Positions 2,061 to 54,652 of a DNA stretch of 64,000 bases are shown one piece after another. The number at the start of each line of letters is the position of its first letter. Position 1 is the first letter of the stretch. The translations under genes were made by a program, and so were the position numbers. The DNA is taken from the NCBI GenBank assembly GCA_017528375.1, contig JAFXOY010000160.1, forward strand, positions 37,398-101,397, given 5' to 3'. Source of the DNA: Clostridia bacterium (GTDB lineage Bacteria > Bacillota > Clostridia > TANB77 > CAG-508). Under the pieces are notes generated by a model that worked only from the letters and a program-made list of their open reading frames with translations, did not search any database and was not told the origin of the DNA.

Positions 2061-2093
2061 TAACACAAAATGAGTCCGTCCCCATATGTGTCA
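2061..2093. repeat. family A repeat, single 33-nt unit (reverse orientation)
   Basis: TAACACAAAATGAGTCCGTCCCCATATGTGTCA is the reverse complement of the family A consensus, with 2-3 mismatches. It creates the spurious N-terminal extension MKITQNESVPICV of ORF 2054..2338. Confidence 0.85.
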
Positions 2094-2134
2094 TTTTTAT
2101 ACTTTTTGCATATACTAAAACTGGAGGTATTTAT

Positions 2135-3983
2135 ATGTGTGGAATAGTAGGTTTTGTTAACTTAACAAAAGATATATCAAACAGTAAAAATGTTATAACA
2201 ACGATGAATGAATCTATAAAAAAAAGAGGACCAGATGAAGATGGCTATTATTATAGTAAACATGCTGTATTTGGACATAAAAGACTTATTGTTATAGATC
2301 CAGAACGGTGGAAAACAGCCAATGTCTGTGAAATATAACAATTGTACTTATTCTATCGTTTATAATGGACAGTTATATAATACTAATGAATTGCGAGAGG
2401 AATTAAGAGAAAACGGATTTGAATTTGAAACATATTCTGATACTGAAGTCTTACTTAAAAGCTATATTTTATGGGGTTATGAAGTTGTAAACAAACTAAA
2501 TGGAATTTATGGTTTTGCAATTTGGAATGATGCAAAACAGGAATTGTTTGTTGCTCGTGATCATTTTGGCGTTAAGCCCTTTTATTATACTTTAAATAAT
2601 AATAATTTTGTATTTGCATCTGAAATAAAAGCTATATTGAAATTCCCAGGTGTTGCTTCAAAATTAGATAAGCAAGGAATTTGTGAGTTGTTTGGACTTG
2701 GTCCTGCTCATACTCCTGGAACTGTTGCTTTTAAGGATATCTACGAATTAAAGCCTGGACATTTTGGCATTTATAATTCAAGTGGATTGCATACTGAAAA
2801 ATATTGGTCCTTGGTAAGCAAGCACCATGAAGATAGCTTAAAAACAACCTGTGAGAAAACTAGATTCTTGCTAGAAGATTCTATTCGAAGACAGCTTGTT
2901 TCTGATGTTCCTTTATGTACATTCTTATCTGGCGGATTAGATTCCAGCATCATAACTTTATATGCTGCTAATTATTGCAAAGATAAAAATTTAGACAATT
3001 TAACCACATACTCTGTAGATTACAAAGATAATGATAAAAATTTCGTTAAAACGGATTTTCAGCCAAATTCTGACAATTATTATATTGACATTATGAAAAA
3101 TAAACTAGGAACTAATCATAAAGTTGTTATGCTTGATACACCAGAATTAGCGACTGCATTAAAAGACGCTATGATCGCAAGAGATTTGCCTGGTATGGCA
3201 GATGTTGATTCTTCTTTGTTATTGTTCTGTCAAAATGTTAAACCTGAGGCTACTGTTTCTTTGACAGGAGAATGTTCTGATGAAATTTTTGGTGGATATC
3301 CTTGGTTCTTCAGAGAAGATGCTTTGAATAGCGGAACTTTCCCATGGTCAATTGCTTTATCTGAAAGACAGCAGTTATTAAATCCTGTAATTAGCAAACA
3401 AGTAAATTTAAAAGAATATATTGATTATAGATATTATGAAAGTTTGAGAGATGTTCAAATTTTAGACGAAGATTCGATGGAGACAGCTGAAAAAAGAAAA
3501 ATATCACATTTGACAATGAACTGGTTCATGCAAACATTGTTAGATCGCTCAGATAGAATGGCTATGTATAACGGTTTCGAATTACGTGTTCCATTCTGTG
3601 ATTATCGTCTAGCTGAATATGTATGGAATATTCCATGGGAAATGAAAGCATTGAATGGACGCGAAAAGGGATTATTACGTTATATTATGAAAGATTTATT
3701 GCCAGAAGAAATTGTAGACCGTAAAAAAAGTCCGTATCCTAAGACATGGAACCCTACTTATTTGGCTACTGTTAAACAAATGCTTACTAAAATTATGGTT
3801 GATAAAAATGCTCCTATTAATAATTTGCTTAATAGAGAATATATTTTGGAGATACTTGCAACTGATGGTAAGGCTTTTTCTAGACCATGGTTTGGTCAAT
3901 TAATGACTGGACCACAACTTATGGCTTATTTGTGCCAGGTTAATATGTGGCTTGAGAAATATCAACCTGTTATTGAAATTTAA
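2135..3983 (+). pseudogene. asnB: asparagine synthase (glutamine-hydrolysing), frame broken near 2306
   Basis: GGAGG (2123-2127) then ATG 2135 gives MCGIVGF (catalytic Cys2) ... HKRLIVIDPE. The zero frame then hits a stop at 2336. The +1 frame continues (N)GGKQPMSVKYNNCTYSIVYNGQLYN... to 3983, with the SGGLDSS PP-loop present. ORF-track ORFs 2054..2338 and 2322..3983 are the two halves. Confidence 0.85.
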
Positions 3984-3984
3984 A

Positions 3985-4023
3985 TGCACAGTTGAGGACG
4001 CGTCCTCAACTGTGCATTTTTTT
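3985..4023. terminator. bidirectional terminator formed by a single family B-like palindrome
   Basis: Perfect 32-nt palindrome TGCACAGTTGAGGACGCGTCCTCAACTGTGCA (3985-4016) followed by a T-run. It lies between the convergent asnB (stop 3981-3983) and the minus gene ending at 4022. It equals the family B unit with a paired G->A / C->T change. Confidence 0.8.
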
Positions 4024-4513
4024 ATCCTATTATTGCTCCTGCAGCTCCAAATACTCCAGCTGCTGCTAATCCCATAATAATTCCTGCTAGAATAACTCCA
4101 GCCATAACTGCAACCATGCTTTTCTTGAAATCCATATCTAAAAAGCTTGCTGCAAGTGTTCCTGTCCACGCCCCTGTTCCAGGTAGTGGAATACCTACAA
4201 ATAAGAATAACGCGAAATATAAACCTCTTCCTGCTTTTTCTTGCAATTTTTTTCCGCCTTTTTCTCCTTTTTCATAACAGAAATTAAAGAATTTTCCTAT
4301 AAATTTTTTGTCTTTACCCCATATTAATACCTTTCTCGCAAAGAAAAATATTAATGGCATAGGAACCATGTTTCCTAATATACAAATAATGTAAAGTGGC
4401 ACTGTTGGAAGTGGTTCTCCAAGCCATGGGCTTAACCCTAATGGCACTGCACCTCTAAGTTCTATCAATGGTACCATTGATACTAAAAAAACTAATATAT
4501 ACTTTAATAACAT
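4022..4513 (-). CDS. small multidrug-export-like membrane protein (COG2426 type)
   Basis: 163-aa polytopic ORF containing PLIELRGAVPLG and GIPLPGTGAWTGTLAA motifs, which I associate with the Sm_multidrug_ex family. Confidence 0.6.
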   Translation of the reverse strand: MLLKYILVFLVSMVPLIELRGAVPLGLSPWLGEPLPTVPLYIICILGNMVPMPLIFFFARKVLIWGKDKKFIGKFFNFCYEKGEKGGKKLQEKAGRGLYFALFLFVGIPLPGTGAWTGTLAASFLDMDFKKSMVAVMAGVILAGIIMGLAAAGVFGAAGAIIG

Positions 4514-4556
4514 CTAATTCTCTCCTTTTCATTCGAATCTTTTTTTAAGCTAAGAG

Positions 4557-4573
4557 TGTCCCAAAATGTGTCA
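4557..4573. repeat. family A remnant (two 7-mers, core missing)
   Basis: TGTCCCAAAATGTGTCA contains the two terminal heptamers of a unit without the GGGGACGGACTC core. It lies 4 nt from the stop codon of the gene at 4577. Confidence 0.5.
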
Positions 4574-4576
4574 AAA

Positions 4577-5071
4577 TTATAAATCAAGCTTAATTTCTAA
4601 ATTTTTTTCATCATATTTTCTATATTTAACGCCACAATAATCAAGCATTTTCTTTGATACAACATTTCCTTCTGTACCATTATATTTATCTGACTTGTAA
4701 ATTATTTCTTTAATTCCAGATTGAATAATTGCTTTAGCACATTCATTACATGGAAATAAATCAACATATATTCTTGCTCCCTCTAATTTTGAGCCCTTAT
4801 TATTCAAAATTGCATTTAATTCTGCATGGCAAACATATGCATATTTAGTATTAATGAAATCTCCTTCTCTATCCCATGGCATATGCTCATCATCATATCC
4901 GTTTGGTGCTCCATTATATCCTAATGATAAGATTTTATTGTCTTGGCTTACAATACACGCTCCAACTTGTGTGTTTGGATCTTTACTTCTTTGAGCTGAA
5001 AGCATTGCTACTCCCATAAAATATGTATCCCAGCCTATATAGTCTTCTCTCTTTTTTTGCATTGAATTCAC
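4577..5071 (-). CDS. dCMP deaminase (ComEB-type cytidine/deoxycytidylate deaminase)
   Basis: 164 aa with the zinc-binding motifs HAELNAI and PCNECAK. Confidence 0.85.
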   Translation of the reverse strand: MNSMQKKREDYIGWDTYFMGVAMLSAQRSKDPNTQVGACIVSQDNKILSLGYNGAPNGYDDEHMPWDREGDFINTKYAYVCHAELNAILNNKGSKLEGARIYVDLFPCNECAKAIIQSGIKEIIYKSDKYNGTEGNVVSKKMLDYCGVKYRKYDEKNLEIKLDL

Positions 5072-5140
5072 TCCTCTTTTTTGGTCTTAAAGTATTATAT
5101 TATTTTTTTTATTTATTGTAAATATCCCTGTAAACATAAT

Positions 5141-5177
5141 AAAAGCCTAAATTATATTTTTTATAATTCAGGCTTTT
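5141..5177 (-). terminator. intrinsic terminator
   Basis: AAAAGCCTAAATTATA-TTTTT-TATAATTCAGGCTTTT, with one mismatch in the stem. On the minus strand a T-rich tract follows. It lies downstream of the small CDS 5204..5365. Confidence 0.6.
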
Positions 5178-5203
5178 ACTTTTATAGCTTATAAGTATTT
5201 TAA

Positions 5204-5365
5204 TTAATTTCTTCCGCAACATCCACAATTAGTAAATAATAGTAAGAAAACAATAATAAAGAATAATATTTCGCTATTGCAACATCCATCTCCACCGAAT
5301 ATTCCTCCTAAGATTCCATTATTGTTTCCGCATCCACATCCGCAATTTCTTCCTTCTTCTGGCAT
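5204..5365 (-). CDS. 53-aa Cys/Gly-rich tiny membrane protein (YjcZ-like sporulation-peptide type, tentative)
   Basis: Not in the ORF track (under 60 aa). AGGAGG sits 9 nt upstream of ATG 5365. Codon-by-codon translation: MPEEGRNCGCGCGNNNGILGGIFGGDGCCNSEILFFIIVFLLLFTNCGCCGRN. It has its own terminator. Confidence 0.55.
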   Translation of the reverse strand: MPEEGRNCGCGCGNNNGILGGIFGGDGCCNSEILFFIIVFLLLFTNCGCCGRN

Positions 5366-5444
5366 ATTCCTCTACCTCCTTTATATTTTATATGATATAG
5401 TATGCAAATTCGAAAAAATATGTTACAATAGTATGTAAATTAAA

Positions 5445-5582
5445 TGACACATTTGGGGACGGACTCATTTTGGGTCAAAAATGGCACAAAAAGGGACGGT
5501 CTTTAAATTTCACTCTAAATACTAAAAGTGTCCCCAAATGTGTCAAAAATGTCCCAAAATGAGTCCGTCCCCAAATGTGTCA
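5445..5582. repeat. family A composite element (inverted terminal units, about 138 nt)
   Basis: The left end TGACACATTTGGGGACGGACTCATTTTGGG and right end CCCAAAATGAGTCCGTCCCCAAATGTGTCA form a perfect 30-nt inverted repeat. Degenerate units (GGGACGGTCTT, GTCCCCAAATGTGTCA) lie between them. The element ends 22 nt before the U32 start codon. Confidence 0.9.
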
Positions 5583-5604
5583 CAATGGACAAAAGGAGCA
5601 AAAA

Positions 5605-8052: not shown

Positions 8053-8074
8053 AAAGAAGAATGCAAGTGAATTA

Positions 8075-10326: not shown

Positions 10327-10395
10327 TGACACATTTGGGGACGGTCTTTTTTGTGTCATTTTTGAAACATTTTAAGACCGTCCAGGAATGTTTCA
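10327..10395. repeat. family A element (two units, inverted) inside the znu operon
   Basis: TGACACATTTGGGGACGGTCTTTTTTGTGTCA, then TTTT, then TGAAACATTTTAAGACCGTCCAGGAATGTTTCA. It fills the znuA-znuC spacer (znuA stop 10402, znuC start 10309). Confidence 0.9.
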
Positions 10396-16100: not shown

Positions 16101-16217
16101 TGCACAGTTGGGGACGCGTCCCTGCTGTGCATTTTGCACAACTGGGGACAGGTAATTTTAGCTGACCCGTCCCTGACTGTGCATTTTGCACAGTTGGGAC
16201 GCGTCCCCAGCTGTGCA
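16101..16217. repeat. family B element, full length (117 nt, three hairpin units)
   Basis: TGCACAGTTGGGGACGCGTCCCTGCTGTGCA, TTT, TGCACAACTGGGGACAGGTAATTTTAGCTGACCCGTCCCTGACTGTGCA, TTT, TGCACAGTTGGGACGCGTCCCCAGCTGTGCA. It abuts the pfk stop codon (16218-16220) and ends 16 nt from the next start codon. Confidence 0.9.
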
Positions 16218-17363: not shown

Positions 17364-17450
17364 TTGCATGTCCTCCTTTGTTTTCCATTATATTCTTTAT
17401 TATTATACCAATATTTTGTAAATTTACAACAGGAAATTATAAAGTTTTAA

Positions 17451-17518
17451 TAACATTTTATGACCGTCCCTTTTTGGGACATTTTTGTCCCATTTTGAGT
17501 CCGTCCCCAATTGTGTCA
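17451..17518. repeat. family A element (reverse-orientation units)
   Basis: TAACATTTTATGACCGTCCCTTTTTGGGACATTTTTGTCCCATTTTGAGTCCGTCCCCAATTGTGTCA. Confidence 0.85.
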
Positions 17519-17555
17519 AACAAAAAAAGAAGCTTTGTTTTAACAAAGCTTCTTT

Positions 17556-23418: not shown

Positions 23419-23488
23419 TGTCCCATTTGGGGACGGACTCATTTTGGGACATTTTTGACCCAAAACGAGTCCGTCCCCAAATGGGTCA
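23419..23488. repeat. family A inverted doublet (70 nt) between spoIIIAE and spoIIIAD
   Basis: TGTCCCATTTGGGGACGGACTCATTTTGGGACA, TTTT, TGACCCAAAACGAGTCCGTCCCCAAATGGGTCA. The two arms are near-perfect reverse complements. The last TCA (23486-23488) is the stop codon of the restored spoIIIAD frame. Confidence 0.9.
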
Positions 23489-23902: not shown

Positions 23903-23973
23903 TGCACACATTTTAAGACCGTCCCTTTTTGGGACATTTTTGACCCAAAATGAGTCCGTCCCCAAATGGGTCA
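23903..23973. repeat. family A element between spoIIIAD and spoIIIAC
   Basis: TGCACACATTTTAAGACCGTCCCTTTTTGGGACA, TTTT, TGACCCAAAATGAGTCCGTCCCCAAATGGGTCA. Confidence 0.9.
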
Positions 23974-26252: not shown

Positions 26253-26335
26253 TGCACAGTTGGGGACGCGTCCCTGCTGTGCATTTTGCACAGCCAGGGA
26301 CAGGTTAGCGAATATGATGTGTCCCCAACTGTGCA
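26253..26335. repeat. family B element, truncated (two units)
   Basis: TGCACAGTTGGGGACGCGTCCCTGCTGTGCA, TTT, TGCACAGCCAGGGACAGGTTAGCGAATATGATGTGTCCCCAACTGTGCA. It ends 11 nt from the spoIIIAA start; its terminal TGCA runs directly into the AAGGAGG SD. Confidence 0.9.
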
Positions 26336-26371
26336 AAAAAAGCATACTATATTAATATAGTATGCTTTTTT
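26335..26371 (-). terminator. intrinsic terminator downstream of yebC
   Basis: AAAAAAAGCATACTATAT-TAA-TATAGTATGCTTTTTT. Confidence 0.75.
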
Positions 26372-26389
26372 CGTTAATATTAGAACTAA

Positions 26390-27115
26390 TTATTCTTCCC
26401 AGTTATGATATACATTTGTTACATCGTCTAAATCATCTAACATATCTAGGAATCTTTGCATTTTTGCTGCTCCATTTTCATCTAATGATGTGTATGTAGT
26501 TGGAACCATTTGCACTTCTGCTTCTAAGAATTCTAATCCTTGTTCTTCTAATTTTTCACGAACTGATGAGAAATCTTCTGGAGATGTTGTAATTTCATAT
26601 ACTTCATCTTCAGCTGAGAAGTCTTCTGCTCCACTTTCTAGAGCAAGCATCATTAAATCATCTTCTGATAATGATGTTGATTCTTTATCAATTACAATTA
26701 CACCTTTTTTATTGAACATGTAAGATACGCATCCAGATGTTCCTAAATTTCCACCTGATTTATCAAATGCATGACGTACATCTGCTGCTGTTCTGTTTTT
26801 GTTGTCTGTACTTCCTTCAACAATAACAGCAACACCATTTGGTCCGTATCCTTCATATATTACTTCTTCATAATTTGCTGTATTTCCAGCACCTGAAGCT
26901 TTTTTAATTGCATTATTTATTGTATCGTTAGGCATGTTTGCTGCTTTACATTTAGCAATAACATCCTTTAATTTTGAATTTCCTGCTGGATCTGGTCCAC
27001 CATTTTTTACAGCAACTAAAATTTCTCTTCCTAATTTTGTGAATATTTTACCTCTTGCTGCATCTGCTTTTCCTTTTTTTGCTTGAATATTGTGCCATTT
27101 TGAATGTCCTGACAT
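26390..27115 (-). CDS. yebC: YebC/PmpR-family transcriptional regulator
   Basis: [32 protein letters not shown]...; 241 aa. Confidence 0.9.
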
Positions 27116-27359
27116 TGTTATTCCTCCTCTTATTTTTCTTTATTTTAAGGCCTTAAGCCTTTATATTAACTAATTAAAAAAAGTAACTTTAAAAATTACC
27201 TTTTCTATTATAACACATTAATTATTATTTGAATAGAGTTTTTTTGCAATTTTAGTGATAAGTTGCTTTTTATCAATAAATATGTTATAATTAAACTATT
27301 CGTTGGGATAAATTCCCATTCACACGTTATCCATCTTAAAACTTTAAGGAGGAATTTAT

Positions 27360-27824
27360 ATGAATCGGAAAAAAGAATTATTGTACAAACTGTTAGGTGT
27401 TGTATTCTCGCTAATGTTTGTTGTCAGCGTATTTAGCCTAATTGCTAAAAACCTTTGGCATCCTTTAACAAAAGCAGATATTGAACAGTGTACACTAATT
27501 GCAAGCGATATTTACTACAATCAGAAAGATGTACTAATCTATGATGTACCTGAAAACTACAAAGTAAAAATCAATGATAACGCTATTACCGTTATTCCAA
27601 CTGACAACAGATATGGATCAGTTAATTTTAGAATGCAAAACGGTAAATTGGTGTCTGATTACGATGATGAATTATGGGCCTACTGTGTAGTCTGTGGTGT
27701 ATTAACAATTGTAGCATATATATTGCTCTTATTATTTGTCATATTAGTTTATAAAATCACTTTCAAAGTATGTGACATCATTAATAAGAAGAAAAAATCA
27801 CAATCCGAAAATGCAACTGCATAA
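27360..27824 (+). CDS. hypothetical membrane protein (154 aa)
   Basis: AAGGAGG SD. An N-terminal and a C-terminal TM helix. In-frame CGG at codon 3 (27366-27368). Followed by a terminator. Confidence 0.55.
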   Translation: MNRKKELLYKLLGVVFSLMFVVSVFSLIAKNLWHPLTKADIEQCTLIASDIYYNQKDVLIYDVPENYKVKINDNAITVIPTDNRYGSVNFRMQNGKLVSDYDDELWAYCVVCGVLTIVAYILLLLFVILVYKITFKVCDIINKKKKSQSENATA

Positions 27825-27826
27825 CT

Positions 27827-27857
27827 AAAAAAAGCCTACTTACTAGTAGGCTTTTTT
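27827..27857 (+). terminator. intrinsic terminator
   Basis: AAAAAAAGCCTACT-TACT-AGTAGGCTTTTTT. Confidence 0.75.
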
Positions 27858-28011
27858 ACTTTTCTCCCATATTTTTCTAACTAATGATAATGTAGATAAT
27901 GTGAAACCAATTACTGGCACTAATGAACTTAAGAATATATTGTCGAATTCTTTTATTACATAAGAATAAATTATTACAACTATACATGTTAAAATCATTA
28001 TGCATATTTTT

Positions 28012-28941
28012 CTATTGAAAGATTATATTTTCATTTAATCTTTTTAAAATACCATCATCGTCTATTTTTGAAATAGCAAAGCACTTCTTTCCTAAATCTT
28101 TTAATGATGCACCACAATGATATAAATCTTTGTTGTCTATAATAATAAATCTATCATGAAATTTATTCGTTGTAGCAATCTTTAGGGTTGGATACTGTTC
28201 ATTAAATTTCTTTATGTCTAGTTTTGTAATTGTACAATTCTGTAATGTTAAAATAACTACTTCTACATTCTTATTTTTCTTTTGTAACATTTTTAATATT
28301 GTATCATCTATGTAGTTGTCTATTATTAGAATCTTATTTTGAGCTGTTTTTATTATATCTATTATTAGTTCATAGCTATCCCATATTTGTCCTTTGAAAA
28401 AAATTCTCTGGTTTATTTGTTCTTTCTTATCGAATTTAGCAAATAACTCATTTATATTTTTGTCTTGTTCCAATAGTTTGCTTTCAATATTTGTTAGTCT
28501 CTCGAATACTTGTCCATTTGATGATAAAAATTTTCTCATTTCAATAAAAGCTCTTATTATTTTTATACTGACTTGTATAGCAATTTCATTCTTTAGTAAT
28601 CCCGAAAGCATTGCAACACCTTGCTCTGTGTATACATATGGTAAATATTTGACATGTTGTCCTCGTCCATTTTGATTCTTTAAGGTTCCATTTTGGAACC
28701 TTAAAGAATTCATTTCCTCATCATTTATTTGAAAACAAAAATCTTCCGGGAATCTGTCAATATTTCTTTTCATTGCTTTATTAACATTTTTGGTTTCATA
28801 TTTATACAACCTAGCAACATCACTGTCTAGCATTACTTGTTTTCCTCTTATTGTATAAATTAGACTTTTTATATCTTCTATTTCGTATTCTACTACATTT
28901 AAATCTTCATTTATTGGCGCGATATTATTTTCATTATTCAT
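28012..28941 (-). CDS. ORF6N (KilA-N-like) DNA-binding domain protein with a C-terminal PLD-like/HxD domain
   Basis: IRGKQVMLDSDVARLYKYETKNVNKAMKRNIDRFPEDFCFQ is the ORF6N pattern. The C-terminus has ILIIDNYID...KFHDRFIIIDNKDLYHCGASLKDLGKK. ATG 28941 is preferred over GTG 28950. Confidence 0.6.
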   Translation of the reverse strand: MNNENNIAPINEDLNVVEYEIEDIKSLIYTIRGKQVMLDSDVARLYKYETKNVNKAMKRNIDRFPEDFCFQINDEEMNSLRFQNGTLKNQNGRGQHVKYLPYVYTEQGVAMLSGLLKNEIAIQVSIKIIRAFIEMRKFLSSNGQVFERLTNIESKLLEQDKNINELFAKFDKKEQINQRIFFKGQIWDSYELIIDIIKTAQNKILIIDNYIDDTILKMLQKKNKNVEVVILTLQNCTITKLDIKKFNEQYPTLKIATTNKFHDRFIIIDNKDLYHCGASLKDLGKKCFAISKIDDDGILKRLNENIIFQ

Positions 28942-35138: not shown

Positions 35139-35234
35139 TGACACATTTGGGGACGGACTCATTTTGTGTCATTTTTGACACATTCCGGGACGGTCTTGTT
35201 CTTTATAAAAAACAAAGCTGTCCCCAAATGTGTC
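35139..35234. repeat. family A element
   Basis: TGACACATTTGGGGACGGACTCATTTTGTGTCA (self-complementary ends), TTTT, TGACACATTCCGGGACGGTCTT ... GTCCCCAAATGTGTC. Confidence 0.9.
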
Positions 35235-38710: not shown

Positions 38711-38786
38711 AAAAATTTTCCTTCCTTTTTGGCATAATTTAACAAGGTTATTATATCACTTCCAGAGGTGAAAAAGCAAGACGTTT

Positions 38787-38863
38787 TGAAACATTTGACA
38801 CATTTGACACATTTGGGGACGGACTCATTTTGGGACATTTTTGACACATTTAGGGACGGTCTT
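38787..38863. repeat. family A cluster (forward-orientation units) 3' of the transposase gene
   Basis: TGAAACATTTGACACATT, TGACACATTTGGGGACGGACTCATTTTGGGACA, TTTT, TGACACATTTAGGGACGGTCTTC. It lies 29 nt beyond the stop at 38893. Confidence 0.9.
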
Positions 38864-38892
38864 CAGACTTTTTTAATTTTCTTAAAACTTGG

Positions 38893-39642
38893 TTAATCAA
38901 GATTATTCATAATTCTATACAAAGTTTTTCTGCTTATTCCAAGCAAATCAGCTATTTCATTATAGCTTAATTTTGATTTTTCTTTTAGTAAAATTGCTAA
39001 TTCTTTTACATGTTTTTTACTAATAATTTCTTTAATGTTTTCAATATTATTGACTTTTAAATAACTTTTAATTACTTTTTGTGGAGAAATTCCGCGAAAG
39101 CTGTAGAAATCCAAATTCTTTGACTTAATAAAAATATTTTTGAATTGTTCTAAATCTAGATTTAATAGTTCTAAAACTTTAGATTTTAAAATATAACTAT
39201 CTGATAAAAAAGCATTGTAACTTGAGTATTTATATTGTTCAGGCTTATCAACAATTTTAGCCTTCACTGGATTATTATGTACATAAATTATGCAAGAATA
39301 CAAGTAATGAAAATCAAATATTTGCTCACTTTTATATCTATCACGAAAAACATACCCTACTCTTTCTTTTTTATTGTTGTACCATTTGGCATAAGCTGTA
39401 TTAATTTTTTTCATAAACATAGATAATTCATCAACTTCCTTGTAATAGATAACCAAATGAACGTGATTATCCATGATACAATAAGAAATTAAATTAATAT
39501 TAAAATCACTTTTTTTCTTTTGCAATAAATCCCAGTATTTCTTTTTGCATGAATCATCTTGGAAAATATACTCTTTGTTTATGCCTTGAGCCATTATATG
39601 CACATAATTTGACACTAAATCTTTTCTAGCATGTCGTGGCAT
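38893..39642 (-). CDS. IS200-like HUH/Y1 tyrosine transposase of the REP-associated (RAYT/COG1943) type, with C-terminal HTH
   Basis: GGAGG + 8 nt then ATG 39642. MPRHARKDLVSNYVHIMAQGINKEYIF..., HUH motif in CIMDNHVHLVIY, Tyr region GYVFRDRYKSEQI, YVHNNPVKAKIV, C-terminal LSYNEIADLLGISRKTLYRI. 249 aa. Confidence 0.8.
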   Translation of the reverse strand: MPRHARKDLVSNYVHIMAQGINKEYIFQDDSCKKKYWDLLQKKKSDFNINLISYCIMDNHVHLVIYYKEVDELSMFMKKINTAYAKWYNNKKERVGYVFRDRYKSEQIFDFHYLYSCIIYVHNNPVKAKIVDKPEQYKYSSYNAFLSDSYILKSKVLELLNLDLEQFKNIFIKSKNLDFYSFRGISPQKVIKSYLKVNNIENIKEIISKKHVKELAILLKEKSKLSYNEIADLLGISRKTLYRIMNNLD

Positions 39643-39684
39643 ACTTTTCACCTCCTCTTTAATATATTTTTGATGAACATCCCT

Positions 39685-39712
39685 ATTATATAACGATTTT
39701 TACATTTTTCAA
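39685..39712 (-). promoter_or_regulatory. possible promoter of the transposase gene
   Basis: Minus strand TTGAAA (39712-39707), 16 nt, TATAAT (39690-39685). Confidence 0.45.
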
Positions 39713-39768
39713 GTAATATTTTTATTCTTCAATCATAAAAATATATTATCGTTTAATTGAAATCGTAC

Positions 39769-39873
39769 AAGACCGTCCCTTTTTGGGACATTTTTGACAC
39801 ATTTTGAGTCCGTCCCAAAATGTATCAAAAATGTCCCAAATTGAGTCCGTCCCCAAATGTGTCAAACGTTTCA
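39769..39873. repeat. family A cluster (three reverse-orientation units) 5' of the transposase gene
   Basis: AAGACCGTCCCTTTTTGGGACA, TTTT, TGACACATTTTGAGTCCGTCCCAAAATGTATCA, AAAA, TGTCCCAAATTGAGTCCGTCCCCAAATGTGTCA, AACGTTTCA. It ends 13 nt before the asd start. Confidence 0.9.
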
Positions 39874-39886
39874 AAAGGAGGTTTTT

Positions 39887-40897: not shown

Positions 40898-40898
40898 C

Positions 40899-41014
40899 GA
40901 AACATCTTTGGACGGTCTTAATTTGTTTCAAAAATGGAAAAAATTAAGACCGTCCCCAAATGGGTCAAAAATGTCCCAAAATGAGTCCGTCCCCAATTGT
41001 GTCAAAACGTTTCA
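40899..41014. repeat. family A element filling the asd / 41012-gene spacer
   Basis: GAAACATCTTTGGACGGTCTTAATTTGTTTCA...AATTAAGACCGTCCCCAAATGGGTCA, AAAA, TGTCCCAAAATGAGTCCGTCCCCAATTGTGTCA, AAACGTTTCA. It starts 1 nt after the asd stop. Its last TCA is the stop codon of the convergent gene. Confidence 0.9.
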
Positions 41015-42132: not shown

Positions 42133-42220
42133 TGAAACATTTTAAGACCGTCCCTAAATGTGTCATTTTTGACACAAAATAAGACCGTCCCCAAATGTGT
42201 CAAATGTGTCACAAATGTCA
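42133..42220. repeat. family A element
   Basis: TGAAACATTTTAAGACCGTCCCTAAATGTGTCA, TTTT, TGACACAAAATAAGACCGTCCCCAAATGTGTCA, AATGTGTCACAAATGTCA. Its final TCA (42218-42220) is the stop codon of the GT4 gene. Confidence 0.9.
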
Positions 42221-43510
42221 CGCATATGCATGTTTCTTTTTGAAATCAAGCAACTTTGTGATTTCCTTCTCTGAATTTTTTGCTTTTGCTGTTTTTTGCG
42301 CATTTTCTTGTGCAATTTCTCTTGCTTGTTTTTCCGCCATTGTTTGGCAAATGGCTTTTTCGTATGTAAAATAAGTATCTTTTGCGATTTTTGTCCAATT
42401 AAATTCTTTCTTTACTTTAGCTTTTGCATTTTTAGTAATATTATCACATAATTGATGATTATATAATAAACTTAAAACAGAATCTGCAATTGAATTGCTG
42501 TTTCCAGCATAACTTTTCATTCCTGTTACTCCGTGATCAATAATTTCGTTAAGGCCTCCAATATCAGAAACAACTGTTGGAACACCTGCAAGCATTGATT
42601 CTAAAGCAACTATTCCAAATGGTTCATATGTACTTGGAAATACAGCGATATCTGCGCATTTATACATTTTTTGTACTTCTTTTGATGAAAGATATCCCGT
42701 AAAATATACTTTATTTTCTATTCCAAGATTTCTTGCTTGTTCTTTTAGTTCATCATACATTCCGCCCTTTCCTCCAATTATCAATTTTGTGTCATTGTAT
42801 CCATTAATAATTTTAGGCATGGCTGAAATTAAGTGTTGAACACCTTTTTCATGAACTAATCGTCCTATATAAAGAATAATTTTTTCATTATCCATAGCAT
42901 ATTTTCTTCTAAAATCATAATCTCTGTCAATTCCATTAAAATTCGTTAAATTAATTCCATTTGGAATTACATTTATTTTTTCAAATGGCAATCCAAATAG
43001 TCTTTGTAATTCACATTTCATGTAATTACTATTTACTATTACTTCACTTGACTCATATGTTAATAGCCATTCAGTATCATTTATATATCTTTGTACATCA
43101 TCATGAATTCCACTATTTCTTCCTGATTCTGTAGCGTGTATTGTAGAAACAATTGGGATTTGGAAAGCATCTTTTAATGTTTTAGCTGAATAAGTCACAA
43201 GCCAATCATGAGCGTGTATACAATCAAAAGGACCTTGTTCATTTATAATTTGAGTTGCTTTTGCTGTTAGTGTAAAATTCATTTGCATTATCCAATCTGT
43301 AAAATTGTTTGGATGGATCATGTAGTTTTCGACTCTATAAACTTTAACTCCTTTGTCGTTTTCGAACTCTGGAACATTGCCTTCTTTGTATGTTACAACA
43401 GTTACCTCATTTCCATCTTTTACTAGTTTATGAGATAAATCATGTACAACCCTTGCAATTCCTCCAACAATGCGTGGTGGATACTCCCAAGTCAACATTA
43501 AAATTTTCAT
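42218..43510 (-). CDS. GT4-family glycosyltransferase (glycogen-synthase-like)
   Basis: MKILMLTWEYPPRIVGGIARVVHDL...; C-terminal E..G....E......P.V.S..GG..E motif. Confidence 0.75.
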   Translation of the reverse strand: MKILMLTWEYPPRIVGGIARVVHDLSHKLVKDGNEVTVVTYKEGNVPEFENDKGVKVYRVENYMIHPNNFTDWIMQMNFTLTAKATQIINEQGPFDCIHAHDWLVTYSAKTLKDAFQIPIVSTIHATESGRNSGIHDDVQRYINDTEWLLTYESSEVIVNSNYMKCELQRLFGLPFEKINVIPNGINLTNFNGIDRDYDFRRKYAMDNEKIILYIGRLVHEKGVQHLISAMPKIINGYNDTKLIIGGKGGMYDELKEQARNLGIENKVYFTGYLSSKEVQKMYKCADIAVFPSTYEPFGIVALESMLAGVPTVVSDIGGLNEIIDHGVTGMKSYAGNSNSIADSVLSLLYNHQLCDNITKNAKAKVKKEFNWTKIAKDTYFTYEKAICQTMAEKQAREIAQENAQKTAKAKNSEKEITKLLDFKKKHAYA

Positions 43511-43720
43511 TTTTATCCCCTTGCTCCTTTCATTTTTTTCTTTATCTTTAGTAGTTTTCTCTCGTTTTTTCTACAAATATTCTATATAAGATTATTTTAA
43601 AAGTCAATATGTTTTTTCTACAATTTTTAACATAATTTTTCGTGTTTTCTATTGTTTTTTTTGCTTCAATGGTATAGTATAATACTAGTTAATTTAGAGA
43701 TTTATACTAAGGAGGAAATT

Positions 43721-44650
43721 ATGCCAAGAAAAGCAAAAGATAAAGTTGAAGAAAACGAAAAAATTGATGAGAAAAAAACTACAACAAAAAAATCTACAGC
43801 TAAAAAATCAGCATCTACTAAGAAAACTACTGTTAAGAAGGCTGAACCAGCTGTAAAAAAAGCAGCTACTAAAAAAGAAACAAATACTACATCAAAGAAA
43901 TCTACTACATCTAAAAAAGCTACTACTTCCAAAACAGCTGCAAAAACAACAAAAACAACAAAAACAACTACAAAAAAAGCTGCAACTAAAAAGACTACTG
44001 CCCAAAAAAGTACAGCTAAAAAAGAAGAACCTACAAAGAAAACAACAACCAGAAGAAAAACCACCAAAAAAGCTACAGTTGTTGAAGAACCTCCTGTTCA
44101 AATTGTAGAGTACTATGATTTACCATATAAATATGGAAATACTGTAGTAAGACTTTTAGCACAAACGCCAAAAACCCTTTTTGTATACTGGGAAGTTTCT
44201 GAACAAGACATAGAAAACTTTAAAAAACTATATGGAGAAGATTTTTTCAGCAAAACAAAGCCTGTTTTAATTGTACATAATTTAACTCTTAATAAAATAA
44301 ATGAAATTGAAATTAATGATTTTGCCAATTGCTGGTATTTAAATACTGAAGATTCTGATTGCAAATTTGATATAGAATTAGCAAGAAAATTTATTGATAA
44401 TACAGCAAATGATGTAGATAACCCGGACAATTATCTTTATATTGCAAAATCAAATAATCTTCAATCTCCTAACAACCACATTCTATTTGAAAAAATTCAA
44501 GAATTTGTGGTTTTTAGAAATGCAAGTAATGATAATATAATTAAGAAAAATATAAAATCTTTTAAATTCTTAAAAGATATTTATAAGTTTTACAAAGATA
44601 TGTATGATGAAGATGTTTTAAATAATCCATCATCACAATTTAAATTTTAG
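43721..44650 (+). CDS. DUF4912-like protein with Lys/Thr/Ala-rich basic N-terminal region
   Basis: GGAGG then ATG 43721. About 125 aa of KKxTTxKK low complexity. Then YDLPYKYGNTVVRLLAQTPKTLFVYWEVS, typical of DUF4912, which I recall as a partner of GH57 genes. Confidence 0.6.
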   Translation: MPRKAKDKVEENEKIDEKKTTTKKSTAKKSASTKKTTVKKAEPAVKKAATKKETNTTSKKSTTSKKATTSKTAAKTTKTTKTTTKKAATKKTTAQKSTAKKEEPTKKTTTRRKTTKKATVVEEPPVQIVEYYDLPYKYGNTVVRLLAQTPKTLFVYWEVSEQDIENFKKLYGEDFFSKTKPVLIVHNLTLNKINEIEINDFANCWYLNTEDSDCKFDIELARKFIDNTANDVDNPDNYLYIAKSNNLQSPNNHILFEKIQEFVVFRNASNDNIIKKNIKSFKFLKDIYKFYKDMYDEDVLNNPSSQFKF

Positions 44651-47369: not shown

Positions 47370-47386
47370 TTTATTACATCCTCCTT

Positions 47387-47519
47387 TGCACAGTTGGGGA
47401 CGCGTCCCGGCTGTGCATTTTGCACAGTCAGGGACAGGTCAACATCAATGTCCGTCCCTAAATGAGTCAAAAATGTCCCAAAATGAGTCCGTCCCCAAAT
47501 GTGTCACCAAAATATGTCA
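47387..47519. repeat. composite element: family B units fused to family A units
   Basis: TGCACAGTTGGGGACGCGTCCCGGCTGTGCA, TTT, TGCACAGTCAGGGACAGGTCAACATCAATGTCCGTCCCTAAATGAGTCA, AAAA, TGTCCCAAAATGAGTCCGTCCCCAAATGTGTCA, CCAAAATATGTCA. Its last TCA (47517-47519) is the ltaS stop codon. Confidence 0.9.
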
Positions 47520-49523: not shown

Positions 49524-49553
49524 TAATCTACCTCTTAACTAAAAAATAATGCT

Positions 49554-50639: not shown

Positions 50640-50659
50640 AGGGTTCACCTCACCTTATT

Positions 50660-51037
50660 TTATACTTTTTTATAATTCATTATTATAAGACCAATTATTA
50701 TTATACTCGCTCCTATAATTCCCTGTTTTGAAATACTTTCTTTAAATACAACTGATGATGCAACTAAAGATAAGATTTGTACTATACCAGTAGTAAGCGG
50801 CATTATATAACTTAAATCAAACATTATAACCATTCTAGTAAATAGTAAAAAACTACATATGTAACATACAAAACCAATTGCACTCACCCAATTTATTGAA
50901 AATGCTATGTCTCCATTATTCAGTTGTATGTTTCCTGCATTTCCACCTTTTTTCATTAATATTAAACCTGACACAGTTAATATTAAATATAATATTACAA
51001 ATATTACCTTCATAATACTTTTCCTCTTTTCTATCAT
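50660..51037 (-). CDS. small 4-TM EamA/SMR-like membrane protein (possible lipid-linked sugar flippase subunit)
   Basis: AAAGGAGAAAAAT then ATG 51037. About 125 aa, four TM helices. Confidence 0.45.
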   Translation of the reverse strand: MIEKRKSIMKVIFVILYLILTVSGLILMKKGGNAGNIQLNNGDIAFSINWVSAIGFVCYICSFLLFTRMVIMFDLSYIMPLTTGIVQILSLVASSVVFKESISKQGIIGASIIIIGLIIMNYKKV

Positions 51038-51060
51038 ATTTTTCTCCTTTTTTGGTTCTA

Positions 51061-52188
51061 TTAATCTACTAACTTGAACCATTTTTCTTTTATGTTTTGA
51101 ACTTCAAACTGTTCACTTTTTTCCCTAGCGTTTTTTCCAAAAATCATTAATTTATCTTTATTATTAACTAAATCTATGACTTTATTTGCCATTTCTTCAA
51201 AATTTCTATTTTCTATAATATAACCATTTTTGTCATTATCTATTATTTCTTTTGCACCTTCAGCAGAACTAAATGCTACACAAGGAATTCCATAACTAAA
51301 TGTTTCCATTAAAGCTAGTCCAAAAGATTCAGTGTATGAAGTATTGATTCCAATTGATGTATTTAACATTATTTCTTCCAATTCAGACTTTGATTTATAG
51401 CCTTGCATGAAAGCGCAATTTTCAAGATGGTTTTCTGATATTTTTTGAATCATTTTTTCTTTTAATTCTCCATCTCCAACTATATTTAATCTAAACTCAT
51501 CATCTTTATCATGTATCTTTTTGAAAACCTCAATTAAATCTATTACTCCTTTTTCTTCAGATAACCTTCCTATGTAAGTTATAACTTTATTGCTTAATTC
51601 AGATGTTTTTTCAGGCATATAATCCAAAATTAGTGGAATATTTACAACTTTACAGTTACTACTCATCATCTTTTTAGAATAAATATCAGCTAATTGCTTT
51701 GATGCAATTACTAAGTAATTTAAATTTTTACATGATTTGATAACATTGTTTATATAGTTTTTTTCATCATTTTTGTAATTGTGTTCTGTTGCAATCTTAA
51801 TTGAATCTTTCTTTCCATATTTGGAAAGCAATTTATTGTGTGGTTCTATTGTTGAAATTACAACATCGCTTTCAAGATTTTTTATTGCTTTTTTCATTTT
51901 ATATTTTTTTAAATGCAAAATTTTTAGTGATATAAAAGATTGTTTTATTAATTCTAACACTTTAAATTTTTTCAAACTTTCATAAAACTCATCTCTATTA
52001 GGCTTCAAATCTTCTAATAAATACGTAATTTTCACATTAGGATTTATATAAAAAGGTGGATTATCATATAATTTATATATTGAAATAATTTCCACTTGAT
52101 TATTTTCTTCAAACATATTTGCAATATTACTTATGAATTTTTCTATTCCTCCATAGCCTAGATGGAGTGCTAATATTGTAATCTTCAT
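51061..52188 (-). CDS. GT4-family glycosyltransferase
   Basis: 375 aa. MKITILALHLGYGGIEKF...; C-terminal E.FGLALMETFSYGIPCVAF motif. Confidence 0.75.
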   Translation of the reverse strand: MKITILALHLGYGGIEKFISNIANMFEENNQVEIISIYKLYDNPPFYINPNVKITYLLEDLKPNRDEFYESLKKFKVLELIKQSFISLKILHLKKYKMKKAIKNLESDVVISTIEPHNKLLSKYGKKDSIKIATEHNYKNDEKNYINNVIKSCKNLNYLVIASKQLADIYSKKMMSSNCKVVNIPLILDYMPEKTSELSNKVITYIGRLSEEKGVIDLIEVFKKIHDKDDEFRLNIVGDGELKEKMIQKISENHLENCAFMQGYKSKSELEEIMLNTSIGINTSYTESFGLALMETFSYGIPCVAFSSAEGAKEIIDNDKNGYIIENRNFEEMANKVIDLVNNKDKLMIFGKNAREKSEQFEVQNIKEKWFKLVD

Positions 52189-53621
52189 ATAATCTCCTTT
52201 GATTCATATTCTCTAAATAATTGTATTAATATAACTGAAATGTAAATGCTTACTGCAGGAGCAACTAATGTATGACCTGCAACCGCACATATTAAGCCAT
52301 TTAAAATAATAATAATATAACAAAATTTATAATCATCTTTTAATAATAAGATTATTTTATTTTTTATTACTCTTTTAATTACTATTACTGCAATTATTAT
52401 AGCAGGAAGAAAATAAATTATAAACCCTAAAATGCCAAAATTATATAAAATATCAAAATAATCCGTTTCTATTAAATATTCGTCATTATTTTCAATATCA
52501 ATTCTGCCTAATCCAATTATTTTTGTTATAATATTTGAATTGCCGAATTTTATATTTATATTAGACATAGTTTCTAGCCTTCCACTATGAATAATTGTTG
52601 CAATTTCGTCATTTGTAAGATTTACATCTTCAATTTTCTCTTTAGTTTGTTCCTGACTTTGTTCTTGTTTTACATTATTTTGATTTTCATCATTATCAAC
52701 ACTTATAGTAGTATTTTCTTCCGAATTTTCTATAACATTCTCTGGAGCAGGATCTGCACTTGATTCAACTACTTCCTGCTTATCCCTTGTTGCAATTAAA
52801 AAGTTTTTATAAATATCAAAGTTTTTCATTACTGGAGATGTTATAAATATGACAGAAAAAACACATATCAATCCTACACCAGCGCACAATGATTTAATAT
52901 AATTTTTATCTTTTGTGCTTATATATTGAATTAAATAAAACATTAAAAATGCAATTATTGCAATTATTGCAGAAACAGCTGGCATTTTAGTACCTATCTG
53001 CAAAACCGTATAAAAACTAACAATTATTAATCCAAAATATACCGCAATATTTTTTATATATTTATAACTAAAAACTATTAATACAATCAAAATTGAAAAT
53101 ATGCTACTTATCTCATTTGCTGAGAAGAACCAACCTATTGTTCCAATTTTATCTTCTGCGTAACTTTCATATCCCAAGTTTAATATACTCGGTAAAAATA
53201 GTAATAAAATGTATTCTATCATAACAAAAAATAATAATTTTAAGTCGATTTTATAATCTTTTGTTTCAACATAATTTAATAAAGTTATTATACAAATTGG
53301 AAAATAGAATGCTTTTATTAACCCTTTTGCCTCTGCCAATATGTACGAACTTCCTTTATTTATATAAACATTAACCATAAAAAATATTGAATACAAAATA
53401 AACATTGCTAAATATGATATTGTTATCTTTTTGTATTTATAACTACTTTTAACTAACGTAAACATTGTCATAAAAAATAGAAGAAAAGACCTTATAATAA
53501 GGCCTAAAGATATATCTATGTTTAACGTTCTTTGGGATACTGATGTTAATATATCAATAATTGGGCTTAAAATTAGTACAATTTCTAGTATATTAAATTT
53601 TTTATATATCAAATTCTTCAT
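52185..53621 (-). CDS. O-antigen polymerase/ligase-like polytopic membrane protein
   Basis: 478 aa, more than 10 TM helices, with an acidic extracytoplasmic loop. Its position in the polysaccharide locus supports the call. Confidence 0.5.
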   Translation of the reverse strand: MKNLIYKKFNILEIVLILSPIIDILTSVSQRTLNIDISLGLIIRSFLLFFMTMFTLVKSSYKYKKITISYLAMFILYSIFFMVNVYINKGSSYILAEAKGLIKAFYFPICIITLLNYVETKDYKIDLKLLFFVMIEYILLLFLPSILNLGYESYAEDKIGTIGWFFSANEISSIFSILIVLIVFSYKYIKNIAVYFGLIIVSFYTVLQIGTKMPAVSAIIAIIAFLMFYLIQYISTKDKNYIKSLCAGVGLICVFSVIFITSPVMKNFDIYKNFLIATRDKQEVVESSADPAPENVIENSEENTTISVDNDENQNNVKQEQSQEQTKEKIEDVNLTNDEIATIIHSGRLETMSNINIKFGNSNIITKIIGLGRIDIENNDEYLIETDYFDILYNFGILGFIIYFLPAIIIAVIVIKRVIKNKIILLLKDDYKFCYIIIILNGLICAVAGHTLVAPAVSIYISVILIQLFREYESKEII

Positions 53622-53633
53622 ATATTTCCTCTA

Positions 53634-54599
53634 TTATTTTAACCAATCTTTATTTTCTAAATACCAATCTATTGTTTTTACGATTCCGTCTTCAAATTTT
53701 GTTTTAGGCTCCCAACCTAATTCGTTTTTAATCTTTGTAGGATCGATTGCATATCTGTAATCATGTCCTTTTCTGTCTTCAACATAAGTAATTAAGCTTT
53801 CTGGTTTATTTAAATGTTTTAATATTAATTTAACAATTTCAATATTTCTTTTCTCATTATGACCACCTATATTGTATCTTTCTCCAGCTTTACCATTATG
53901 TAAGACTAAATCAATTGCTTCACAGTGATCTTCTACATATAACCAATCACGAATGTTTAATCCTTCACCATAAACAGGTAATTTTTCATCATTTAATGCA
54001 AGTTTAATCATGTGAGGAATTAATTTTTCATTATGTTGGTATGGTCCATAATTGTTTGAGCAATTTGTTACAGAAACGTTCATCTTAAATGTTTCATGAT
54101 ATGCTAAAGCAATTAAATCTGAACCAGCTTTAGAAGCTGAATATGGGCTGTTTGGCTGAATTGGAGATTTTTCTGTGAAATATCCTTCTTCTCCAAGTGT
54201 TCCATATACTTCATCTGTTGAAATATGTACAAATTTATTTGGTGAGCCTTCTCCCCAAACTCTTTTTGCAACTTCCAATAAGGTATGTGTACCAATTACA
54301 TTTGTTTGAGTAAATATAAATGGTGTTTTAATACTATTATCAACGTGTGACTCAGCCGCAAAATGAACAACACTATCAATATTATATTTTTCAAAAGTTT
54401 CTGTAACTTTTTCTAAATCACAAATATCTCCTTGTACAAATGTTATTTTATCTTGTACTTTCTTAAGATTGTCCATATTTCCAGCATAAGTTAATTTGTC
54501 GAATACAACAATATTATAATCTGGATGTTTGTTAACCATAAATTCTGCGAAATTACTTCCTATAAAACCAGCAGCACCTGTTACTAATATGTTTTTCAT
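53634..54599 (-). CDS. rfbB: dTDP-glucose 4,6-dehydratase
   Basis: MKNILVTGAAGFIGSNF...HISTDEVYG...YSASKA... Confidence 0.95.
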   Translation of the reverse strand: MKNILVTGAAGFIGSNFAEFMVNKHPDYNIVVFDKLTYAGNMDNLKKVQDKITFVQGDICDLEKVTETFEKYNIDSVVHFAAESHVDNSIKTPFIFTQTNVIGTHTLLEVAKRVWGEGSPNKFVHISTDEVYGTLGEEGYFTEKSPIQPNSPYSASKAGSDLIALAYHETFKMNVSVTNCSNNYGPYQHNEKLIPHMIKLALNDEKLPVYGEGLNIRDWLYVEDHCEAIDLVLHNGKAGERYNIGGHNEKRNIEIVKLILKHLNKPESLITYVEDRKGHDYRYAIDPTKIKNELGWEPKTKFEDGIVKTIDWYLENKDWLK

Positions 54600-54619
54600 A
54601 TTTTAATCTTCCTTTCTTT

Positions 54620-54652
54620 TGAAACATTTGGGGACGGACTCAAAATGTTTCA
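54620..54652. repeat. family A single unit (perfect 33-nt hairpin form) between rfbC and rfbB
   Basis: TGAAACATTTGGGGACGGACTCAAAATGTTTCA, with self-complementary ends TGAAACATTTTG / CAAAATGTTTCA. Confidence 0.9.

Follow-up and report, generated by a model that had tools for sequence, protein, structure and literature searches.

A RAYT-type transposase gene and its flanking family of REP-like repeats in an uncultured rumen Clostridia bacterium

We analysed a 64-kb stretch of contig JAFXOY010000160.1 (here called the window) from an uncultured spore-forming rumen Clostridia bacterium, in which short repeats that we call Family A are scattered through the spacers between genes and also flank a transposase gene at 38893-39642. 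The product of that gene is a tyrosine transposase of the type associated with repetitive extragenic palindromic (REP) sequences, a RAYT, and we consider it probable (about 80 per cent) that Family A consists of REP-like non-autonomous mobile elements generated or maintained by this RAYT. Since the window holds a RAYT gene with inverted Family A flanks, we treat the repeats as mobile DNA first, with an RNA role at most secondary. The repeats and their placement, the fold and motifs of the transposase, the flanking relation, the synteny and the filled and empty sites were all observed directly. The window has a G+C content of 29 per cent and carries a spoIIIA cluster (sporulation), BipA, asd, and other housekeeping genes; its proteins have exact copies on many metagenome contigs of rumen or gut type. 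Related contigs are given L numbers, of which L001, L002, L004, and L005 represent other strains and L008, L010, and L040 sister species.

Family A was searched for with a profile of its 33-nt unit over the window and with a core search that allowed up to two mismatches. The core GAGTCCGTCCCC has 17 matches at that threshold against 0.18 expected, and none of 100 shuffles had as many; the exact 16-mer GAGTCCGTCCCCAAAT is present in ten copies against 0 expected. The profile recovered 27 full and 3 partial units, all of them at 14 loci, and these are exactly the loci listed in an earlier model-made reading of the letters alone (the sequence-only reading). The two unit variants proposed there are both real, type 1 having the core GAGTCCGTCCCC and type 2 the core AAGACCGTCCC. 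The consensus unit, TGACACAAAATGAGTCCGTCCCCAAATGTGTCA, is laid out as TGNNNCA, W4, (G/A)AG(T/A)CCGTCCC(C), W3, TGNNNCA, with TGACACA/TGTGTCA, TGAAACA/TGTTTCA, TGACCCA/TGGGTCA, and TGTCCCA/TGGGACA as paired stem variants. We ran the covariation analysis that the sequence-only reading had suggested and found that stem positions 3-5 pair with positions 29-31 and covary, with 11 double changes against 3.2 expected and no value as high in 500 shuffles. Pairing within units and between neighbouring units is about equal (0.75 versus 0.94 mismatches per 7 bp), and the inter-unit hairpin inside arrays, with 7 bp and a 4-nt loop, has support similar to that of the intra-unit hairpin. A search of the whole window against Rfam 15 at the gathering score returned no matches.

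The open reading frame (ORF) at 38893-39642 is annotated Y1_Tnp in sister contigs and matches Pfam Y1_Tnp with E 4e-12. Against NCBIfam its match to REP_Tyr_transpos (E 2e-16) is far better than that to IS200 (E 5e-4; 20 bits, cut-off 55). An HTH_23 domain occupies residues 218-249 (E 6.6e-6; 26.2 bits against a cut-off of 24.6) and is conserved in the family, as are, without exception among the homologues, the HVH motif and the YxHNNP tyrosine. While a single-sequence search against PDB sequences found nothing relevant, a profile of 42 homologues had its best match there in 4ER8 (E. coli TnpAREP), ahead of ISDra2. The AlphaFold2 model (pLDDT 87.6) has a helical C-terminal domain, and its best Foldseek match is again 4er8_A (E 2e-6, target TM 0.72), with IS200/IS605 transposases next. 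Inverted copies of a dispersed repeat on either side are the defining signature of RAYT genes (Nunvar 2010, PMC2817692), and this gene lies between inverted Family A arrays whose arms of 69 nt are 91 per cent complementary (3'-side arm versus 39807-39875). The gene, its promoter-like site, and the 14 Family A loci are listed below, with 1 and 2 for the core type of a unit and plus and minus for its orientation.

38893..39642, minus strand: RAYT-like Y1 HUH transposase of 249 aa, with HVH (HUH motif), catalytic Tyr in YVHNNPVKA, and C-terminal HTH_23
39685..39712, minus strand: promoter-like site TTGAAA-16-TATAAT (11/12) between the transposase gene and the 5'-side flanking array, conserved between alleles
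2061..2093, plus strand: one type 1 unit on its own, ahead of asnB (which starts at 2135) in its divergent promoter/5'UTR region
4556..4573, plus strand: partial unit comprising the 3' half, GTGTCCCAAAATGTGTCA, with the upstream gene's stop (4577) 3 nt away; weak (nhmmer E 0.06); profile start 4558
5445..5582, unstranded: composite (1-)(2-)..(partial+)(1+), the architecture of the RAYT flanks without a gene between; ends 22 nt before start 5605
10327..10395, unstranded: inverted doublet (2-)(2+) filling the spacer between stop 10402 and start 10309; -15.7 kcal/mol, z -5.4
17449..17518, plus strand: head-to-tail doublet (2-like)(1) after a terminator-like hairpin (17524-17555); next start 79 nt away
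23419..23488, unstranded: inverted doublet (1-)(1+), a near-perfect 70-nt hairpin within the spoIIIA gene cluster
23904..23973, plus strand: head-to-tail doublet (2)(1); stop 23976 is 2 nt away, start 23873 30 nt away
35139..35234, unstranded: (1-)(2-) and a partial plus-oriented unit, between the BipA start and a terminator-like hairpin that follows the S1 gene; orthologous spacer empty in L010
38787..38874, minus strand: 3'-side flank of the transposase gene, tandem half-sites and then (1-)(2-), type 2 nearest the gene; profile span 38805-38874
39758..39873, plus strand: 5'-side flank of the transposase gene, (2+)(1+)(1+) and a half-site, its end separated by 13 nt from the asd start (39887); profile span 39758-39864
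40898..41014, unstranded: (2-)(2+)(1+) and a half-site, filling an entire convergent spacer; profile span 40898-41004
42133..42221, plus strand: (2+)(2+) and tandem half-sites, supplying the upstream gene's TGA stop; orthologous spacer empty in L010; profile span 42133-42202
47437..47506, plus strand: (2-like)(1) with a Family B arm (47386-47436) fused to it, the whole chimeric B/A element taking up the stop-to-Shine-Dalgarno spacer
54620..54652, minus strand: single type 1 unit (stem pair TGAAACA/TGTTTCA); stop 54655 is 2 nt away, start 54599 20 nt away

Within arrays the units follow a simple grammar. Linkers are almost always 4 nt of A/T, which gives a period of 37 nt, and the 54 unit adjacencies comprise 36 direct, 16 '-+', and 2 '+-' pairs; in all 17 mixed direct pairs the type 2 unit comes first. 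The resulting polarity can be written (1-)n(2-)/(2+)(1+)n, and the transposase gene is the centre of one such array, which thus forms a 'REPtron/TIRtron'. Inverted arrays without a gene lie at 5445-5582, 10327-10395, and 40898-41004, with half arrays and single units in other spacers. Many type 2 units are missing the left half-site, a feature that marks the inner boundary of the element, and outer array ends often carry tandem copies of a 9-10-nt half-site (38787-38804, 42203-42221). Inverted doublets, which resemble the pairs known as REPINs, are found at 23419, 10327, and 40898 and, in the form (1-)(1+), in contigs L018, L029, L035, and L037, but 36 of the 54 adjacencies are direct.

The same gene and the same relation to the repeats recur in relatives. 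The RAYT lies between asd on one side and the genes for an Asp23-like protein, cmk, S1, and BipA on the other, and this position is shared by the four other strains and by L008, L010, and L040; NCBI names the transposase of L010 (GCA_024697565.1) as that of 'Clostridia bacterium'. Inverted flanking arrays with a CGTCCC core and with type 2 nearest the gene are present in the window, L001, L008, L010, L040, and L041. All close RAYT homologues (74-76 per cent identity) are flanked by Family A-type repeats, including one, 76 per cent identical, on a contig of 969 bp with both ends inside repeats, while the distant homologues in L009 (30-40 per cent identity) have other inverted repeats that keep a GGGACG motif. 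The dispersed copies match the flank variant of their own lineage: in L008 all of them are AAGACC with TGTTTCA stems.

Comparison of orthologous spacers gave three filled and empty sites. The spacer between the GT5 and YlbF genes is 18 nt long and empty in L010, but both L008 and the window have two units there, and the TGA of the element stands in for the earlier TAA stop. The convergent spacer after asd measures 2 nt in L008 and 114 nt in the window, where it is built wholly from three units, and the S1-BipA spacer is empty in L010. Spacers filled in one species and empty in another point to insertion. No target-site duplication was visible at the three comparisons.

Differences among the strains are concentrated in the transposase cassette. 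L001, L002, L004, and L005 are about 97 per cent identical to the window in nucleotide sequence over the shared region, and Family A loci are conserved between strains to the same degree as the flanking genes (99-100 per cent), so this conservation carries no information on constraint. The cassette from repeat to repeat (approximately 38780-39870), by comparison, is 72-82 per cent identical to its counterparts in these four strains, with flanking DNA at 99-100 per cent; RAYT proteins are 69 per cent identical between strains, and BipA, Asd, and GT5 are 100 per cent identical. Both RAYT flanks in the four strains carry type 2 units only. Synonymous divergence (dS) between the alleles is saturated (>1), and the ratio of non-synonymous to synonymous divergence (dN/dS) is 0.06-0.3 (0.13 between strains). 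The pattern resembles the exchange of one allele of the entire cassette for another, with sharp boundaries, and saturated dS together with low dN/dS suggests old functional allelic lineages exchanged as a module rather than decaying genes. The invariant HUH motif and tyrosine, with the same dN/dS values, argue that transposase activity has probably been retained.

In the window, no Family A unit lies in the body of a gene. Overlap with ORFs of at least 100 codons was recorded and then inspected by hand, since stop-to-stop ORF coverage over-counts genic units on account of false 5' extensions. Read locus by locus against the flanking genes, 0 of 28 window units were inside a gene body, which bears out the description of the repeats as strictly intergenic in the sequence-only reading; the seven window units spanned by such ORFs are false 5' extensions or spurious antisense ORFs. 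The false N-terminal extensions of MSQNESVPKCV type that had been suspected are real, the peptide being the translation of ATGTCCCAAAATGAGTCCGTCCCCAAATGTGTC. Of all 94 units in the window and the metagenome loci described below, ORFs of 100 codons or more run across 13, all but about two of them start-codon artefacts; such ORFs cover 82-90 per cent of all positions.

Placement relative to start and stop codons is close at most loci, with some exceptions. At nine of 13 loci the element stops 13-31 nt short of the next start codon and leaves only the Shine-Dalgarno sequence free: the gaps are 17 nt (10327/10309), 15 nt (23419/23403), 13 nt (39873/39887), 22 nt (5582/5605), 19 nt (42133/42113), 20 nt (54620/54599), 31 nt (35139/35107), and 30 nt (23904/23873), with 16 nt (47386/47369) for the composite 47386-47506 locus when measured from its Family B arm. 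The earlier range of 11-31 nt holds for these nine and fails at 38787 and 17449, which lie about 77-79 nt from the next start, and one of the pairs cited for it (16101 vs 16084) belongs to Family B. At the other end, the upstream stop codon is 0-3 nt away or overlapped at 4573, 23973, 40898, 41012, 42218, and 54652 (about half of the stop-proximal ends), close to the 0-2 nt claimed, but it is 6-10 nt away at 10395, 23488, and 47506. The element at 40898..41014 begins 0 nt past the end of asd, and the opposing gene takes its stop codon from the final TCA of the element. Further exceptions to the general placement are 2061 and 5445-5582, which lie in divergent promoter regions, and 17449 and 35139, which come after terminator-like hairpins.

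Some additional features were seen at the edges and junctions of Family A elements. Where TTTT meets TGACACA between units (39794-39821, 42176-42203, 42139-42166), perfect or near-perfect TTGACA -35 hexamers are created, with A/T-rich -10-like hexamers 16 nt away, so Family A elements could seed outward promoters. On the left side of the 5445-5582 locus, a small Cys/Gly-rich ORF with a good Shine-Dalgarno sequence (5200-5365, minus strand; MPEEGRNCGCGCGNNNG...) is absent from the list of ORFs of at least 80 aa. On the metagenome contig L037, a 120-codon ORF crosses one unit of the element at 316-385 and stops at the TGA of the next, where the element possibly replaced the C-terminal end of a protein.

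A scan of metagenomes yielded 27 loci (about 102 kb) with almost no overlap with the window and 66 more Family A units. ORFs of 100 codons or more run across only six of these 66, whereas they cover 82 per cent of all positions; with the exception of about two, inspection traced the six to start-codon artefacts or to sites next to terminators. The window is thus not a unique hotspot, although no Family A unit was found in the 10 kb to its left (the left edge being the one across which the window was extended), where there is one Family B locus. The absence of units in that 10 kb shows that density is uneven; the window has one locus per 4.6 kb and the longer metagenome loci about one per 11 kb when the seeded match is excluded. 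Several metagenome matches sit at contig ends, inside repeats, as would follow if these multi-copy elements broke the assemblies. A scan of one genome per species, a set that does not include the source genome, gave two single unit matches in other metagenome-assembled genomes. In about 166 kb of sequence in all we found no other RAYT gene and no other transposase, giving one RAYT to 94 units.

By analogy with E. coli TnpAREP and IS200/IS605 TnpA, we infer that this RAYT mobilises the units and that it does so on single-stranded DNA. It would bind a folded half-site hairpin and would cleave and rejoin the strand beside the conserved CGTCCC-containing core, copying or moving units, often to a place adjacent to an existing one. 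Insertions would be kept by purifying selection only where the coding sequence and the Shine-Dalgarno sequence stay intact, which would produce the stop-to-Shine-Dalgarno pattern, and in several cases the element's own TGA or TCA end would have become a stop codon. Effects of the hairpins on operon mRNAs (stability, translation termination, occlusion) would likely be by-products, possibly co-opted at some loci, and such a secondary role is plausible.

Several results weigh against this reading. The REP_Tyr_transpos score of the transposase, 60 bits, is below the curated cut-off of 80. A lone unit is a 7-bp stem around a 19-nt loop and thus a poor palindrome, and neither GTAG, the tag of classical REPs, nor CTAC occurs in the consensus. 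Head-to-tail arrangement, dominant in Family A, is reported as rare in known REP families (PMC3733652). The three filled and empty comparisons do not define an insertion target sequence. No transposition event was seen, the seven Family A loci shared with L001, L002, L004, and L005 being identical in position, and these unchanged positions imply that activity is slow or past. The copy counts themselves cover about 166 kb of contigs and no complete genome.

The best-placed alternative is that Family A units are primarily RNA or regulatory modules (stabilisers, processing sites, attenuators, or insulators) and that the link to the transposase is secondary. Elements inside operon spacers, of which there are many, must be co-transcribed, their ends lie 0-10 nt from stop codons, and the loci are conserved between strains; in E. 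coli, REPs as near as this to a stop codon affect translation termination. The hairpin at 23419-23488, described from the outset as near-perfect and about 70 nt long, was borne out by folding both as DNA (-32.6 kcal/mol, z -9.6) and as RNA (-55.7 kcal/mol, z -12.9). The sequence-only reading went further and held that the elements are transcribed inside operons as strong hairpins; transcription holds for those in operon spacers, but strong folding is confined to inverted doublets or to one orientation. Head-to-tail doublets fold weakly as DNA (z -0.9 to -2.5) and as RNA fold well in the G-rich orientation only, remaining weak (z about -2) in the other, and the orientation of the elements relative to transcription is mixed. 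Some copies follow terminators or sit in divergent promoter regions, Rfam gave no match, and the conservation between strains is no higher than that of the flanking genes. Orthologous spacers are empty in sister species with nothing else changed. We therefore regard a primary RNA function as unlikely.

We give still less credence to the idea that the units are arrays of double-stranded-DNA binding sites, for the C-terminal helix-turn-helix (HTH) domain of a domesticated transposase or for a nucleoid protein, serving chromosome organisation or regulation. The TGNNNCA half-sites do alternate in orientation at fixed spacings of 4 and 19 nt, the near-equal pairing within and between units yields palindromes that a dimeric HTH protein could read, and the HTH domain is conserved in the family. 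Filled and empty sites and the homogenisation of copies within lineages, however, imply copying, and the catalytic HUH motif and tyrosine are invariant under a dN/dS of 0.06-0.3. That the units are miniature inverted-repeat transposable elements (MITEs) of an unrelated DDE-type insertion sequence, with the Y1 gene having landed in a repeat-rich spacer, seems to us very improbable: the terminal inverted structure and the arrays are MITE-like and repeat-rich spacers do attract insertions (e.g. the chimeric B/A 47386-47506), but the flanking relation, with type 2 nearest the gene and arrays outward, holds at every homologue examined (window, L001, L008, L010, L040, L041), the distant L009 homologues carry their own inverted repeats with GGGACG, the three filled and empty sites lack a visible target-site duplication, and no other transposase was found in about 166 kb. 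CRISPR arrays were ruled out by the lack of unique spacers, intrinsic terminators by the lack of a T-tract (separate terminator-like hairpins stand beside two loci), and DNA uptake sequences by the composite structure and the transposase flanks.

Among known systems, the class that best fits Family A and its RAYT is that of TIRYTs and their TIRtrons, equivalent to TnpAREP subclass 2.1, an assignment made from domain architecture only. TIRYTs are RAYT-like proteins whose flanking long inverted repeats carry a GGGGWSAS motif and in some cases belong to dispersed families (Di Nocera et al. 2013, PMC3733652). Subclass 2.1 is defined by a C-terminal HTH_23, HTH_28, or DnaA-like (Bac_DnaA_C) domain, and its genes were reported to have no REP-like sequences alongside (Quentin et al. 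2018, PMC6006769), whereas Family A adjoins this RAYT. Group 1 RAYTs in Clostridia have flanking 16-mers at only about 12 per replicon (Bertels et al.). The likeness to TIRYTs extends to a RAYT-like Y1 protein longer than classical RAYTs with a C-terminal HTH_23, to long inverted flanks with a GGGG(A/T)(C/G)-type motif, and to dispersal as singles, dimers, and clusters. The motif GGGGWSAS is matched by Family A GGGGACGG at 7 of 8 positions and by Family B GGGGACAG exactly. Family A differs in occurring in Clostridia, outside the phyla that the text of that paper (PMC3733652) names for REP-type repeats, and in being denser than the 'moderately abundant' families, with 10 exact flanking 16-mers in 64 kb.

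Family A shares with classical REPs, with the bacterial interspersed mosaic elements (BIMEs) built from them, and with REPIN-RAYT systems the character of short extragenic repeats at high local density (PMC2817692, PMC3337134, PMC3333891), a low-copy syntenic RAYT gene between inverted repeat copies, and a transposase of the same fold and catalytic motifs (structure 4ER8); its inverted doublets, like REPINs, form long hairpins. It differs from classical REPs in having no GTAG tag, in a 7-bp stem round a 19-nt non-palindromic core in place of a tight palindrome, and in two unit types in fixed order. Family A is mostly head-to-tail, whereas BIMEs alternate in orientation and REPINs are inverted, and unlike classical RAYTs the transposase has an extra HTH domain and alleles that are deeply divergent within one species.

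Two further systems were compared. Read in an alternative register, CGTC-CCCAAA-[TGTGTCA-N4-TGACACA] in each 37-nt period, Family A recalls the CGTC-tagged REP superfamily (Di Nocera et al. 2013), with CGTC on the 5' side of a short hairpin whose loop measures 4 nt and whose stem has A/T pairs at its base, a likeness that we treat as a lead only. In the described families of that group, the tag abuts the stem (6 nt separate CGTC from the 7-bp stem in Family A), dimers are mostly head-to-head rather than head-to-tail, and there is no associated transposase, whereas Family A flanks one; Family A also lacks the CCA tail. With IS200/IS605 and their miniature derivatives, the palindrome-associated transposable elements (PATEs), it shares the Y1 HUH superfamily, hairpin-containing ends, and the lack of a visible target-site duplication, and the fixed order of its two unit types on one strand is reminiscent of separate left and right IS200/IS605 ends. 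The flanks here, however, are inverted repeats, where IS200/IS605 elements have asymmetric left and right ends on a single strand; the protein has 249 aa against about 130-150 aa for TnpA and matches RAYTs far better (E 2e-16 versus 5e-4), and the gene is single and syntenic rather than multi-copy.

A second, related repeat family, Family B, occurs in the window at 3985-4016, 16101-16217, 26253-26335, 47387-47438, and 55255-55370. Its unit, TGCACAG-N3/4-GGGGACGCGTCCC-N4-CTGTGCA, is a true palindrome with the same half-site grammar as Family A, and the half-site with the exact GGGGWSAS match is GGGGACAG at 16135-16152. At the 26253 locus, one 34-nt unit and a 10-nt half-site differ between strains. 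No transposase for Family B was found in any fetched locus. The chimeric element at 47386-47506, whose left arm belongs to Family B and whose right arm, attached without a gap, belongs to Family A, suggests that the two families recombine or are processed by related enzymes.

Several neighbouring features of the window were also recorded. The asparagine synthase gene asnB is split into overlapping ORFs in different frames (2135-2338 and 2322-3983), and an independent assembly, L038, has it called as the same two parts (67 aa and 553 aa). A true frameshift or a pseudogene would be one possible reading of the split, a programmed shift another. An AbiEii/AbiEi-type toxin-antitoxin pair lies at 305-1946, and two 46-nt direct repeats (1900-1991; 78 per cent identical) that overlap the start of the antitoxin gene and extend upstream could be an operator. 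The region 26335-28624 is strain-variable: L004 has about 2.7 kb extra (Bro-N, NUDIX, and another gene), and other strains have ORF6N-domain genes of differing lengths. The DUF4912 protein at 43652-44650 has a long Lys/Thr/Ala-rich region encoded by 15-nt periodic repeats, and its length varies across strains and species from 236 to 371 aa.

To our knowledge, REP/REPIN-RAYT systems have been studied almost only in Proteobacteria, and a full-text literature search found no paper combining REPIN, RAYT, and Firmicutes. Family A and its RAYT may, at somewhat less than even odds in our estimate, be the first abundant REP-like family in a Gram-positive lineage (Clostridia) tied to its own HTH-bearing RAYT (TIRYT, subclass 2.1, possibly 'Group 1'), with polarised arrays unlike REPs, BIMEs, or REPINs and a cassette swapped between near-identical strains; given the CGTC-containing core, a dedicated transposase would then likewise be a first for CGTC-type repeat families. 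Because the elements break assemblies, fake N-termini, and donate stop codons, annotators should mask them. The HTH-bearing RAYT subclass was earlier reported with no or sparse associated repeats, and here the enzyme and about 100 candidate substrate sequences for it are both in hand. If our reading is true, the REP/RAYT phenomenon extends to Gram-positive rumen anaerobes.

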